A stretch of DNA of 20,000 nucleotides, taken from Chiloscyllium plagiosum (lineage: Eukaryota). The notes under the pieces are model-generated. The model searched no databases. It saw only the letters and a program-made list of their open reading frames with translations, and had not been told where the DNA came from. The stretch lies in the NCBI RefSeq assembly GCF_004010195.1, contig NC_057719.1, forward strand, positions 1,397,604-1,417,603, in the 5' to 3' direction. Of this stretch, positions 5,717 through 19,815 are shown piece by piece (position 1 is the first letter of the stretch; each line of letters opens with the position of its first letter). A program made the position numbers and the translations under genes.

Positions 5717-6425
5717 TGTTACGACATGGGGCAAACCCCTCTGCTAATGTAAACCCGACACACAGAGAAGTTCAGCTCGCGCCGTAATCTGTTACATTCG
5801 AGAGGCAAAGAACTATCCCCGAGGTCACTACTTAAAGTAAAAATTAACAATTTTATTCTTTAAGTCCAAAAGGTAACATTAAACAACAGCTATTTACAAC
5901 TCCTTTCTCTGAAACCTATCCTTTACCTCCCACCCTACAATACTGGTCCAATTTAAAAAAAAATCACATTTCAAAACCAGTCAGCTTTGTCGATTCTCCT
6001 TTGTAGATTTTTCTAGCTCAGCTTCGGTCTTCTGCGGCAAAATTTCTTATGAACCGGTACCTTTCAGAAAGCTATTCGGTGAGCAGACTATACTTGTTGG
6101 TTTTCTTGGCAGTTTTCCCCCTAACTGTTCAAAATGTCTGGTTTTATACCCCAAAACATCAGATCATTTCATTGGTTTGATATCATCAAAACACTAAATT
6201 CGAATTTGATTGGATTTTCGTATCTGGAGCATAATTCAAACTGATAGGTCGAATTTGAATTTGTTTTTATTCCATGGCAATGCAAATCCAACTATTTGTT
6301 TCAACTAAGTATTACATTTTTAAATTGTTCAGGACACTGTGCTTTCAGTCGGTCCTTGCTAGCTCCCTCTCTCTTTCCTGTCTCCCTCCATGTCTGTGTC
6401 TGTCTCTCCGTCTCTCTCTGTCTGT

Positions 6426-6481
<56 letters not shown>

Positions 6482-6537
6482 GTCTCTCTGTCTCTCTGTC
6501 TCTCTCTGTGTCTCTCTCTCTCACACACACACACACT

Positions 6538-6573
<36 letters not shown>
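5717..6573 (-). mobile_element. Probable solo LTR
   Basis: Starts TGTTACGA and ends ACA, flanked by CAT/CAT. On the minus strand, CCAAT (6209-6213, 6171-6175), TATAAAA (6142-6148) and AATAAA (5852-5857) occur in U3-R-U5 order. Interrupts a colinear L2. Confidence 0.65.

Positions 6574-6575
<2 letters not shown>
6366..6575. repeat. Compound microsatellite (CT)n / (GTCTCT)n / (CA)n
   Basis: Directly visible; source of the SLSL/ERER/THTH ORFs. Confidence 0.99.
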
Positions 6576-6576
<1 letters not shown>

Positions 6577-6765
6577 TGGTAGCAGCTTGGTCTTAAGCTC
6601 GGAATTCTGTCCCTGAATTCTTCTCTAAGTTCTTCCTTAAATCCCCTGTTTGGATAGCCTTTTTTGATCCCCTTTCCTATTATATGCTCCTGTTCCATTT
6701 TGCCGGGCCCATTTCTATGAAATACTGAGGTGTTTTTCAGAGTTATAGTAATACGGATGGTGATT
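6577..6765 (+). mobile_element. L2-clade LINE 3' end, right part
   Basis: taagctcggaattctgtccctgaa..ccttaaatcccctgtttggatagcctttttgatc; reverse-complement similarity to 2330-2430. Confidence 0.6.
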
Positions 6766-6774
6766 GTTAAATTG

Positions 6775-6834
6775 TTCCTGATGAAAGGCTTATGCCTGAA
6801 ACATCGATTCTGCTTCTCCTTGGATGCTTCCTGA
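6775..6834 (+). mobile_element. Short hammerhead-motif element (Penelope-terminus-like), truncated copy
   Basis: CTGATGA-a-AGGC-ttat-GCCT-GAAAC-ATC then gattctgcttctccttggatgct, as in the copies at 13174, 14758 and 19241. Confidence 0.8.
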
Positions 6835-12212: not shown

Positions 12213-12294
12213 GTAGTTGTGGCCGAGTGGTTAAGGTGAGGGATTTGGAATTCTTTGGGGCTTCCCTGTGCAAGTTTGAATCCTACCGGCTATG
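12213..12294 (+). pseudogene. tRNA-Ser pseudogene (82 nt, long variable arm)
   Basis: gtagttgtggccgagtggttaaggtgagggatttggaattctttggggcttccctgtgcaagtttgaatcctaccggctatg aligns end to end with the vertebrate tRNA-Ser GTAGTCGTGGCCGAGTGGTTAAGGCGATGGAC..GGTTCGAATCCTGCCGACTACG; many CpG-type changes, damaged B box, no CCA. Confidence 0.9.
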
Positions 12295-12322: not shown

Positions 12323-12645
12323 GGGGGGCGGCATAGTGGATCACTGGTTAGCACTGATGCTTTACAGCACCAGGGACCCGGGTTCAATTCCCCCCTTGGG
12401 CAACTGTCTGTGTGGAGTTTGCACATTCTCCCCGTGTCTGTGTAGGTTTCCTCCGGGTGCTCTGGTTTCCTCCCACAGTCCAAAAATGTGCAGGTCAGGT
12501 GAATTGGCCAGGCTAAATTGCTCGTAGTGTTAGGTGCATCGGGCTAATGTAGCGAAATGCGTCTGGGTGGGTTAGTCTTCGGAAGGTTGGTGTGGACTTG
12601 TTGGGCCAAATGGCCTGTTTTCAAACTGCAGAGAATCTAATCTAA
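12323..12645 (+). mobile_element. HE1-like SINE, essentially full length
   Basis: tRNA-like head (tagtggatcactggttagc; gggttcaattcc), V-domain gtgtggagtttgcacattctccccgtgtctg..ggtttcctccgggtgctc, LINE-like tail ending aatctaatctaa. Confidence 0.92.
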
Positions 12646-13173: not shown

Positions 13174-13326
13174 GGAGCAGGAAGTGAGGACTGCAGATGT
13201 TGGAGATAAGAGACAAAAAGTGTGTGCTGGAAAAGCACAGCAGGACAGGCAGCATCAGAGGAGCAGGAGAATCAATGTTTTGGGCATAAGCCCTTCATCA
13301 GGAATGTGAGGCCACACTTTTTGACC
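13174..13326 (-). mobile_element. Short hammerhead-motif element with a small inverted terminal piece
   Basis: Minus strand: cattcCTGATGAaGGGCttatGCCCaaaacattgattctcctgctcc.. (core decayed at CpGs). 13313-13322 is inverted relative to 13214-13223. Flanks CCCATATAGAC (13160-13170) and CCCAAATAGAC (13327-13337). Confidence 0.85.
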
Positions 13327-13372
13327 CCCAAATAGACGCTGTCTATTGCTCTCCTTTCATCACTCATCTTGG

Positions 13373-14159: not shown

Positions 14160-15105
14160 TTTCAGGCTCTCCCTGTCCACCCTATCTAACCCCCTGATTA
14201 TCTTCTATGTCTCTATTAAGTCACCTCTCAATCTTCTTCTCTCTAACGAGAACAGCCTCAAGGCCCTCAGCCTTTCCTCGTAAGACATTCCTTCCATTCC
14301 AGGCAACATCCTAGTAAATCTCCTCTGCACCCTTTCCAAAGCTTCCACATCCTCCTTATAATGCAGTGACCAGAACTGTACACAATACTGTGGCTGTACC
14401 AGAGCTTTGTACAACTGCAGCATAACCTCCTGGTTCTGGAACTCAATCCCTCTATTAATAAAGGCCAAAACACTGTATGCCTTCTTAACAACCCTGTCAA
14501 TCTGGGTGGCAACATTCAGGGATCTGTGTACATGTGCCACCTCTCAGCCCAGCTCTGCATCCTTTCTATGTCTCTCTGCAACCTACTACATCCTTCGTCA
14601 CTATCCACAACTCCACCGACCTTAGTGTCATCCGCAAATTTACTAACCCACTCTTCTAAGCCCTCATCCAGGTCATTTATAAAAATGACGAACAGCAGTG
14701 GACCCAACACCGACCCTTGTGGTACGCCACCAGTAACTGGACACCAAGATGAATATGCTGAAAATGTGTTGCTGGAAAAGCACAGCAGGTCAGGCAGCAT
14801 CCAAGGAGCAGGAGAATCGACGTTTCGGTCATGAGCCCTCATGCCCGAAACGTCGATTCTCCTGCTCCTTGGATGCTGCCTGACCTGCTGCGCTTCTCCA
14901 GCAACACATTTTCAGCTCTGATCTCCAGCAGCTGCAGTCCTCACTTTCTCCACCAAGATGAATATGTTCCGTCAACTACAACCCTCTGTTTTCTTTCAGC
15001 AAGCCAATTACTGATCCAAACTGCTTTGTCTCCCACAATCCCATTCCTCCGCATTTTGTATAATAGCTTACTGTGGGGAACCTTATCGAACACCTTGCTG
15101 AAATA
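14160..15105 (-). mobile_element. Relatively young CR1 ORF2 fragment (RT domain), internal deletion near 14537, interrupted at 14758-14950
   Basis: FSKVFDKVPHSKLL..WISNWLAERKQRVVVDG / [32 protein letters not shown] / QIDRVVKKAYSVLAFINRGIE..LERVQRRFTRMLPG. Confidence 0.95.
14758..14950. mobile_element. Palindromic (head-to-head) copy of the short hammerhead-motif element, with 16-bp target duplication
   Basis: Arms 14757-14835 and 14838-14916 (79 bp, 3 mismatches); CACCAAGATGAATATG at 14742-14757 and 14951-14966. Confidence 0.93.
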
Positions 15106-15124
15106 TGATTTCTGAAGAATCTTA

Positions 15125-16000
15125 ATATGAATTTGGGTGGGAAAGTTAGACATGAGGGAGAAACAAGGACGCTACAGAAGAGTTTAGATAGGTCAAGTGA
15201 TTCAGTGAAAATGTGTAGGATGTGAGAAACTGTCCACTTTGATAGGGAAAATGAAAGAAAAAAGGAGAATATTATTAAAACTGGCATTCATGGTGAGCTG
15301 GTTGCACATGTAGATTAATCACAAAGTTTGCATGCAGATTCAGCAAGCAGTTGGGAAGGCAAATTGGATGTTGATTTTAATTACAAAACAGTTATAGCAT
15401 AGGAATAAAATGAGTGGTTTTGAAACTATGTAAAGCCTTGAGATCACATTTGGAGTATTGTGTAGTACCCAGGGTAATTAACAATGAGTAATGCTGGCCC
15501 ACCTAGTAAAGCCCTCATACCCTTAATGAATATAAAAATGTACTGTGTGATTGCCTCATTCAATGAACGATTTCCTGAAAGGGTTTTTACAGGTTTACCA
15601 CATTGATTGCTGAACCAGGGAGAGGTTAGGAATGATTTGAGTAGGTTAAGCCAATATTTCCTGGAGATTAGAAAAGTAGGAGACAACATTGTTGGAGCAG
15701 GTAAAGTTGTTATAGGGCTTGTTGGGCTGGATGCTGACAGGCTGTTTAATTGAATCTCTAACACGGATCACCCTCTCGGGGTAAGGGGCTATTCTTTTAC
15801 GTTTGGGATGATGAGAAATTTCAAGGTTGAAATTCTCTGGATGACCACAGCTTGCTTGAGTGGCCATTGAGAGAGTTTGACATTTTTAGATGGGCGATGA
15901 TGAGAAAAGGTGAAATTGAGATTGAAAATCAGTCATGATCATATTGATTCACAGAGCAAGCCTAAGGATCAAATAGCCTCCACTGCTTAGTCTCTGTTGA
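15125..16000 (+). mobile_element. Old degenerate CR1 3' fragment (with a short second-family tail at ~15470-15540)
   Basis: cagcaagcagttgggaaggcaaattggatgttg..agatcacatttggagtattgtgt..aatcagtcatgatcatattga parallel to 13740-13880 and 595-660. Confidence 0.7.
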
Positions 16001-16359: not shown

Positions 16360-17355
16360 AATTTGTGCAAATGACATGAAGTTAGTGCAGTTGTGAATAG
16401 AGAAGAAGGTTATCAAAGGATACAGCTGGATGCAGAGTAGTTGGAAAGTTGCACAGAGAAATGACAGATGGAGTTTATTCCAGCCAACTGTGAGGAGATG
16501 CATCTTGGGAGGTCAAATGCAAGAGGAAGTTCTTCAGTAACTGGCAGAACCTTTAGCAGCATTGATGTACAGAGAGATCTTGGGTGCAAGTCCATAGCTC
16601 CCTGTATGTGGAAGCACAAGTGGATAAGCTGATAAATAAGGCATGTGACAAGCTTGTCTGTGAGGCAGCAGTGCTAACCACTGTGCCACCGTGCCACCCC
16701 AGATCTTGGGTGCAAGTCCATAGCTCCCTGTATGTGGAAGCACAAGTGGATAAGCTGATAAATAAGGCATGTGACAAGCTTGTCTTCATTGGTCAGAATG
16801 TTGTGTATAAAAGTTGGCAAGTCATGTTGCAGCTGTGTAAGATTTTAAGTTAGGCCACATTTGGAGTAGTGTGTGCAGTAACTGTTGCCACTCTATGTGA
16901 AGGATGTGGAGGTTTTGGAGACGGTGCAAAAGAGATTTACCAGGATCTTGCCCAGATTGAAATGTGGTAGGTATAAGAAGAGGTTTGGATTGTCTTTACT
17001 TGGATTGTTTTTATTGGAACATCAGAGGCTGAAGAAGGACCTGATCGAACTGTAGAAAATTGAGAGGCATAGACAGTGGAAAATTGGAATCTTTTTCCCA
17101 GGGTGGCAATATCAAATAATAGGGAGCGTAGGGGGCCTAAGGTGAGGGTGGGAAAGTTTAAGGAAGATTGCCAGGCAATGTTTTTTCAAATAAACTTGTT
17201 GGACTATAATCTGGTGTTGTGTGATTTTTAAGAAGCATTTGAAGGCAGAGAATATAGATTGATTAGAGGGGACTATATACAGGCAAATGTGATTAATTTA
17301 GAATGGCATCATGGTTGGTGGAGACATGTTGAACTGAAGGGCATTTTCCTGTGCT
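16360..17355 (+). mobile_element. CR1-clade LINE 3' fragment including tail
   Basis: WQMEF-like tgacagatggagttt, QRDLGVQVHSSL..QVDKLINKA..LVFIGQNVVYKSWQVMLQL; tail gaagggcattttcctgtgct. Confidence 0.9.
16575..16785. repeat. Perfect 85-bp direct duplication (16575-16659, 16701-16785) flanking an HE1 SINE 5' head (16658-16700, minus strand)
   Basis: Copies read identical base by base; the insert's reverse complement is ggggtggcacggtggcacagtggttagcactgctgcctcacag, matching 12325-12367. Confidence 0.95.
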
Positions 17356-18492: not shown

Positions 18493-19240
18493 AACAAAGG
18501 GCGAGGTCACATTAGATTTGGCATTGGGTAATGAACCTGGCCAGGTGTTAGATTTGGAGGTAGGAGAGCACTTTGGTGATAGTGACCACAATTAGGTTGT
18601 GTTTACTTTAGTGATGGAAAGGGATAGGTATTTTGCAAGGTTTGTGAAGGTTTGTAGCTCAGGTTGAGGTTTAGGGTGTAGGTTGGAATAGGCCACTGTT
18701 GGAATATTGCAAGAGTGCCAGGCCTCTAGGAATCCTCTCAGAAAACAGAGGAGAACCTCCTATACAATGTATTCAAGATGAACGGATACTCAAAAAATAT
18801 AGTCCGCAGATTCCTCAGGAACAAACAGACCAAACACAGCCAGAAACCCTAACCACCTAACCATACATCAAATAAGTTTCAGAAATGACAGCCAGACTAC
18901 TAAGACCCCTCGGAATCCTAGTAACAAACCCAGCAACACTCTCAAACAAAAACTAACAAACTTAAAAGACCCAGTACAACTCATGGACAAAACCAACGTC
19001 GTCTACAAAATTCCATGCAAGGACTGCCACAAACACTATGTAGGACAAACAGGAAGAAAGTTAGCCACCAGGATACACGAACACCAGCTAGCCACAAAAA
19101 GACACGATCCCCTCTCCCTCGTAGCCCTACACATGGAAGAAAAAAACCACCATTTTGACTGGGACAACACATCTATCCTGGAACAGGCTAAGCAAAGACA
19201 TGCCAGAGATCTCCTAGAGGCCTGGCACTCTAACCACAAC

Positions 19241-19333
19241 CCTCCTGATGAAGGGCTTTTGCCCGAAATGTCGATTTCGCTGCACCTTGGATGCTGCCTG
19301 AACTGCTGTGCTCTTCCAGTACCACTAATCCAG
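19241..19333 (+). mobile_element. Short hammerhead-motif element inserted into the Penelope ORF
   Basis: CTGATGA-a-GGGC-tttt-GCCC-GAAA-TGTC at 19245-19272; flanked by ACTCTAACCACAAC (19227-19240) and ACTCCAACCACAAC (19334-19347). Confidence 0.9.
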
Positions 19334-19498
19334 ACTCCAACCACAACGCCATAAACAAACACACAGATCTAGATACCATCTATCAACCCCTCAGAAAACG
19401 AACAGGAAATGACATCACCACAAACCCCAGGAATCCTATCCTGGACAAACATATAAATAGAAAGCAGGAGACAACAGCTTTGCTTCACTTGGAGGTCG

Positions 19499-19538
19499 CC
19501 ACTGATGATGTTACCTAGCCAGGTAATGAAACGTCTGG
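19499..19538 (+). ncRNA. Minimal type I hammerhead ribozyme in the Penelope 3' terminus
   Basis: Stem I CCA/TGG; core CTGATGA 19502-19508; stem II GTTACC-tagcca-GGTAAT; GAAA 19528-19531; palindromic ACGT stem III; GTC cleavage triplet 19533-19535. Confidence 0.85.
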
Positions 19539-19815
19539 ATATCAAACCTACAGCTCAGCGAGCAAACCCACCCTAAGGGATAGGTATATACACCGCAGGG
19601 CAAGAGTTATAGCTCAGGGAAAGGCAATTAGAATGCGATTAGGCAAGATTTAGGATGTGTAGGATGGGGAAGGAGATTGCAGGGATGGGCACAATTGAAA
19701 TATGGAGCTTATTTAAGAACAGCTACTTTGTGGCCTTGCTAAGTATGTACCTGTCAGGCAGTGATGAAGTAGTCGAGTGAGGGAGTGTGGTTTACTAAAG
19801 AAGTTGTATCTCTTG

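Follow-up and report, generated by a model that had tools for sequence, protein, structure and literature searches.

Insertions of Penelope-like elements (PLEs) usually consist of an inverted, 5'-truncated copy beside a direct pLTR, with a tail of 30 to 40 nt on one side only (PMC8557442, PMC3846280), and a tail of this length has also been described in PMC11167929. The origin of the inverted structures is an open question according to PMC8557442. The PAc protein of the anole Poseidon element cleaves and extends both target strands in vitro and has been modeled as a dimer; the element has two internal start sites, which delimit the tail, and its template is uncut RNA (PMC11167929). Inverted genomic pairs are not discussed in the main text of that paper, whose one use of "inverted" concerns a primer block. 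For the minimal hammerheads of metazoan PLEs, motif pairs have been reported 100 to 700 bp apart on opposite strands (PMC4209133). Dual priming has been put forward as a postulate, for L1, in PMC2837659. Non-LTR retrozymes are described as head-to-tail tandem units, each with a complete hammerhead (10.64898/2026.07.22.740005).

The palindrome described here lies in a window of 20,000 nt, which is the whole stretch of DNA that was analyzed. We are highly confident that it is a dead insertion of about 193 nt, derived from a very abundant PLE and having the form of an inverted copy plus tail; as such, it is a new instance of an already published PLE form. Positions within the repeated unit are numbered from the C of the CTGA box, so that stem II of the hammerhead occupies positions 9 to 20. 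The parts of the locus are as follows.

14519..14741, minus strand: fragment of the host LINE reverse transcriptase (RT), downstream of the insertion, matching Pfam RVT_1.
14742..14757, no strand: left copy of the target site duplication (TSD), an exact 16-mer whose last base also fits the element.
14757..14839, minus strand: copy of the pLTR end, inverted and without the tail; it extends between the inner 3' boundary and unit position 8-10 and includes all of stem II.
14827..14838, minus strand: complete hammerhead stem II in antisense, 4 bp with a 4-nt loop, one pair being broken by the change at 14829.
14838..14839, no strand: CT microhomology joining the arms (left-arm positions 8-9, right-arm positions 12-13).
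14838..14951, plus strand: direct copy of the pLTR end, from unit position 12-14 to the 3' end of the family.
14917..14951, plus strand: one-sided PLE "tail" of 34 to 35 nt, absent from the left arm.
14951..14966, no strand: right copy of the TSD, an exact 16-mer whose first base also fits the element.
14967..15104, minus strand: fragment of the host LINE RT, upstream of the insertion, in frame with the other part after excision.

The anatomy, the junction letters, and the restored host frame can be read directly at the locus. An inverted-repeat search of the 20,000-nt window gives arms at 14757-14835 and 14838-14916, each of 79 nt and 96% complementary, with three noncomplementary pairs (14829/14844, 14782/14891, and 14777/14896). 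The insert between the TSD copies measures 193 nt. The right arm exceeds the left by 34 nt (14917-14950) that have no counterpart in the left arm, and the CTGA box is missing from both arms, the left reaching position 8 and the right beginning at position 12. On all three points (79-bp arms with three mismatches, a right arm longer by 34 nt, and loss of the box from both arms), the first-pass annotation of this DNA was accurate. Compared with the letters of the family, the arms show about four changes in 193 nt (14829, 14896, 14931, and 14782), or about 2%. Of these, 14829 in the left arm and 14896 and 14931 in the right arm are private, and 14782 is either a CpG change or a subfamily letter present in 26 to 38% of the family. 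In the right arm are loop II and the 3' strand of stem II, together with GAAAC and the GTC cleavage triplet (14852-14854). Folding of the tail region gave no stable structure (z scores of +1.4 and -1.4), and no second copy of the palindrome center was found in the 20,000-nt window.

The insertion had been placed inside an RT, and this holds, since 14519-14755 on the minus strand matches Pfam RVT_1 (5.6e-10) and the host frame reads through 127 codons without a stop when the insert is removed together with one copy of the TSD. The part at 14967-15104 alone gave no Pfam match. The host LINE RT is putatively CR1-type; the repeat depth of the host stops at about 15104 to 15110. The same annotation had reported a perfect 16-bp TSD. 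The exact 16-mer pair is there, with just two occurrences in the window, a match that cannot be extended, and a rough chance of ~4e-7, but the length of the duplication is 14 to 16 bp, because one base at each edge (14757 and 14951) is common to the element. Both copies have T at the 13th place (14754 on the left and 14963 on the right), where the host family has C: in three DNA runs this letter accounts for 99.4 to 99.7% of the contig depth, and all 14 RNA reads show it. As this locus-private T is present in both 16-mers, the private change was duplicated, just as a real TSD would do. The inferred primer ends both finish in TG; other TSDs in the window do not, so no cut motif is claimed.

The proposal of a Penelope-like insertion with an inverted terminal copy agrees with this anatomy, which matches the published form: an inverted, 5'-truncated copy adjoins a direct copy head to head, a tail within the range of 30 to 40 nt stands at one end only, a TSD encloses the whole unit, and the terminal repeat of the family contains a hammerhead motif. 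Head-to-head copies, a one-sided tail, and an enclosing TSD are likewise seen in insertions of EN+ PLEs (PMC8557442, PMC3846280), although the insert here is much shorter than those and contains no open reading frame (ORF). The TSD of 14 to 16 bp differs from the 8 to 10 bp of the rotifer PLE examples, and the junction has a 2-nt overlap, in contrast to the 15-bp overlap and the palindromes of 18 to 38 bp in the rotifer paper. Both the minimal hammerheads of metazoan PLEs (PMC4209133) and those of the present family show the core boxes, with one additional base ahead of stem II, and both have a G-C closing pair as well as a palindromic ACGU, whereas stem II is 4 bp here and 7 to 8 bp in the schistosome examples of that paper. 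The palindromic copy itself departs from those hammerheads in that neither arm has the CUGANGA core box upstream of stem II, and the core of a functional minimal hammerhead cannot form.

Other classes fit less well. The locus differs from non-LTR retrozymes in that its units face each other head to head and have no box. Miniature inverted-repeat elements (MITEs) end on either side in mirror-image terminal inverted repeats that directly adjoin the TSD, and this class was rejected as the right end has 34 nt without a counterpart. A microRNA precursor was likewise rejected: the best Rfam match reached 44.2 bits versus 75 (mir-1791), and other hairpin matches were generic and far below the cutoff.

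Four public runs (three of DNA, as contigs, and one of RNA, as reads) were aligned to 14812-15200. The contig records placed number 69,898, 134,738, and 60,518, to which 1,965 RNA reads are added; almost all lie on 14838-14951, and the right-arm unit is present at very high copy in runs of three organisms. In all four runs, loose ends gather behind 14951 (368, 89, 212, and 539 records), which indicates that the 3' end of the family lies there. Among the rows listed (24 of 717), the consensus of the loose ends that precede 14838-14842 is ATTCCTGA(A/T)GAAGGG in four of four runs, and this consensus is the missing half of the minimal hammerhead. The main loose-end consensuses retain the CTGA box in all four runs, among the rows listed. 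The window holds further copies of the unit at 6775-6834, 13174-13304, and 19243-19333, all with a CTGA box and a 4-bp stem II, and all three end 2 to 6 nt upstream of the box. Hammerhead features (the CTGA box, stem II, and GAAA) are thus found both in the window copies and in the loose-end consensuses of the four runs; a search for Rfam hammerhead matches returned none at E values up to 5.

At the boundary of the tail, 7 of the 12 joints listed (out of 42) have one side at 14911-14919, and no clear step in depth was found at the inner boundary (14916) in the four runs. In runs X1 and X11, there are joints that link the 3' end (14950-14952) with 14911-14919, which suggest a tandemly repeated tail in copies elsewhere. 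No RT-GIY-YIG frame linked to the unit was found, and other copies were found at 0 loci among viral contigs, metagenomes, and prokaryote genomes. A protein search for other centers with the 63-residue read-through frame gave no candidate (lengths of 34 to 111 only).

The center of the palindrome is where the locus parts company with the first-pass annotation, which had seen the arms as centered on the stem II hairpin around a 2-nt CC spacer and had attributed them to snap-back or self-priming of cDNA at that hairpin. The axis falls at 14836/14837, midway between two loops and 4 nt from each, the stem II loop of the left arm lying at 14831-14834 and a second loop, in the right arm, at 14839-14842. 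The CC is not a spacer but templated element sequence (positions 10-11), as the left arm continues to 14839. The distance from GTTTC to GAAAC across the center is 20 nt, whereas snap-back at stem II predicts 12. Furthermore, positions 10-11 are present in the left arm alone, and the 34-nt tail is present in the right arm alone. Since each arm has letters that the other lacks, neither arm is a self-copy of the other, and it is this property that makes the palindrome an informative case. Positions 10-11 of the left arm cannot have been templated by a cDNA from the right nick, since such a cDNA ends at positions 12-14. Nor can the 34-nt tail have been templated by a cDNA from the left nick, which begins inside the tail boundary. 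Both nick-anchored cDNAs therefore fall short of the letters needed, and target-anchored self-copying explains neither arm.

The nearness of the center to stem II may have another source. In the three other copies of the window, the 5' ends lie 2 to 6 nt upstream of the box, so any joined pair would be centered near the hammerhead, and a loss of 10 to 20 nt from such ends would put the joint in stem II. We think it likely that the nearness follows from this pile of 5' ends and not from hairpin priming.

The reading that we favor, and hold to be probable, is that two nick-primed cDNAs with starts 34 nt apart had their ends joined. The element nuclease would cut both target strands 14 to 16 nt apart, leaving two 3' ends, each of which would prime cDNA on uncleaved element RNA. 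One cDNA would begin at an outer start and include the tail, and the other would begin at an inner start 34 nt upstream and lack it. Both would run toward the hammerhead region, where family copies usually end, and a stop or trimming would leave them at positions 12-14 and 8-10. The two 3' ends would then be joined via the 2-nt CT/AG match, and the gaps would be filled, so that a single event would yield the head-to-head arms, the one-sided tail, and the TSD. It is the two priming events, the joining of the ends, and the timing of the trimming that we infer. Because both arms pass the cleavage triplet, the template RNA would have been uncut. The mechanism is read from one junction, and the argument from positions 10-11 consists of two templated letters plus a 2-nt overlap; chance additions could mimic those letters roughly 1 time in 16. 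Further points against it are that the depth has no clear step at 14916, that no RT-GIY-YIG frame linked to the unit was found, and that PMC3846280 explains PLE junction palindromes by self-priming on an antisense template.

Two published systems resemble this scheme. In the anole Poseidon element (PMC11167929), as proposed here, there are two starts bounding the tail, an uncut template, and a hammerhead shortly upstream of the starts, although the PAc data are from in vitro work on another element. The junction disfavors priming at the ribozyme hairpin and fits two-strand priming of the kind carried out by the anole protein in vitro. In the twin priming or dual priming of L1 (PMC2837659), both nicked strands prime cDNA, a TSD bounds the inverted pieces, and the inner junction has little or no microhomology, all of which the present reading shares. 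However, twin priming in L1 uses nonoverlapping pieces of one RNA, whereas the arms here cover the same stretch. This would require two RNAs, or one RNA with two pLTRs in tandem, and corresponds to the dual priming postulated for L1.

Several other routes to the same structure were weighed. Long palindromes tend to lose their centers, and a later deletion between two CT dinucleotides, removing the center of a longer pair that had both CTGA boxes, would leave the same letters as joining at insertion. The other copies in the window retain the box, and a repair deletion also leaves 2-nt microhomology, as in the microhomology-mediated deletions known from Penelope copies (PMC3846280). However, the product is still a near-perfect palindrome, so the structure would not have been relieved, and a divergence of no more than about 2% between the arms and the family letters leaves limited time for such an event; we regard it as unlikely. 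We give less credence still to self-priming of a free antisense strand that then integrates and loses its left tail. Self-priming of this kind has been published for PLE junction palindromes (PMC3846280), and a strand running from the tail to position 8 contains all the letters for both arms. Here, though, it would have to occur at a register other than that of stem II, pairing CT with AG across 2 nt, which calls for a 2-bp stem with a 2-nt loop, for a separate step removing exactly the tail from one side, and for no role of stem II; it appears decidedly improbable.

Snap-back or self-priming of cDNA at stem II itself has in its favor a center no more than 4 nt from the stem II loop and a left arm that ends at or just beyond the base of stem II, but the 20-nt center and the mutually missing letters (the tail and positions 10-11) make it very improbable. 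Snap-back combined with a slippage of 8 nt was considered and rejected, as the 8 additional nt do not repeat the letters next to them in tandem. The run data also speak against it. None of the five deletion rows from the four-run alignment is the 8-nt omission that would signal snap-back, and in the RNA run (X21) the mean depth is ~2 reads over 14812-14837, compared with 745 at 14846, while 632 reads fall into three loose-end classes whose consensus retains the box. Forms centered on stem II thus make up at most ~0.3% of X21 reads at the start of the arm, a figure that is no tally among palindromes, as hairpin RNAs may drop from libraries and a consensus can hide minority centers. Opposite-strand joints in X21 amount to one RNA read, among the joint rows listed (15 of 29). 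Contig depth over 14812-14837 is left out of the evidence because such pieces fit both arms and such contigs collapse palindromes. The same low share of the center in RNA, together with the lack of a second center in the window, bears on the idea of a palindromic master copy mobile as one unit, in the manner of a MITE or a hairpin SINE. The locus is short, TSD flanked, and a near-perfect inverted repeat, as such a unit would be, but its ends are not mirror images, and we find the idea hard to credit. An artifact of assembly or library construction, that is, a fold-back chimera, is extremely improbable. The exact palindromic allele is known from the assembly, the aligned stretch starts at 14812, inside the left arm, and no listed record of the four runs aligned to 14812-15200 spans the center or the right junction. 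A chimera is nevertheless difficult to reconcile with three differences between the arms and private changes on both sides, with an exact TSD that repeats a locus-private letter, with an exactly restored host frame, and with a unique right flank that is present in X1 with 0 differences (there are three in X11).

Joining of two nick-primed cDNAs, if it is the right account of this locus, could have a wider bearing. A tentative extension, to which we lean slightly less than not, is that PLE head-to-head pairs generally arise as a dimeric RT-nuclease primes both nicked strands, from an outer and an inner start. In that case, the one-sided tail, the overlapping arms, and the short microhomology joint would be one signature, and dual target priming would replace the published antisense self-priming model. 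Dual priming was not found proposed for PLE inverted pairs in the mostly open-access literature covered, and older PLE reviews may discuss it. The locus itself is minor, a dead 193-nt insert within a dead LINE, and on the origin of PLE inverted structures it contributes one data point.

The palindrome had also been expected to form long double-stranded RNA (dsRNA) if transcribed, and the part of this that concerns folding stands: its RNA is predicted to form a very stable hairpin of -152 kcal/mol (z, -21.5). Long dsRNA would arise from such palindromes on a large scale if many of them were located in introns. In X21, with ~2% of the run read, RNA depth is 0 over the unique flank at 15111-15200. 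At the level of the family, A>G plus T>C places number 25 in the RNA compared with 11, 6, and 10 in the DNA runs, a difference (P of 0.04 to 0.07) that is confounded; A>G and T>C account for 11 and 14 places, respectively, in X21, compared with 3 and 8, 1 and 5, and 4 and 6 in the DNA runs, which come from other individuals. The A>G changes in X21 are enriched in one strand class. However, the nonediting changes at 14879, 14904, 14915, and 14938 rise in the same strand class as the A>G excess, and 142 X21 RNA reads share one flank behind 14950, with a consensus containing AATAAA, which suggests one expressed copy of the unit near a transcript 3' end. Because the nonediting changes rise alike and these reads share a flank, one expressed divergent copy can explain much of the A>G/T>C excess.

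The window also contains a second, truncated PLE of another family at 18619-19587, with an exact 13-bp TSD and its own hammerhead motif (19502-19532). A GIY-YIG-like frame at 18806-19237 (E of 0.0012, below the cutoff) belongs to this family and not to that of the palindrome. Its left end starts with 53 nt of the terminus in inverted orientation, which include the extension or tail, so that the tail is on the inverted side; these are followed by 27 nt resembling the host LINE family and then by 20 nt of its own ORF in antisense. This three-piece junction is far from the hammerhead of the element, which also speaks for the favored reading of the palindrome. Nested in the GIY-YIG frame is a solo hammerhead unit of a sister subfamily (19243-19333), with a 14-bp duplication containing one mismatch; in the alignment, the end of this unit coincides with that of the left arm of the palindrome, which has no tail.

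An older antisense copy with tail and CTGA box lies at 13174-13304 and is followed by an 11-nt sense stub (13313-13323), a match that 6 of 1897 control windows equal; an 11-bp duplication with one mismatch accompanies 13174-13337. The stretch 13174-13323 is probably a third, very lopsided inverted pair, with its turn upstream of the box. At 16575-16659 and 16701-16785, two identical direct copies of 85 nt flank 41 nt that are 79% complementary to 12325-12367, and 16575-16785 as a whole reads as an exact duplication of great length with a tiny insert inside. A tRNA match at 12213-12294 (36.8 bits; cutoff, 29) has a long variable arm and is probably the head of a tRNA-derived repeat or a pseudogene. 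We also found a compound microsatellite of ~220 nt, CT and then CA, at 6360-6580.
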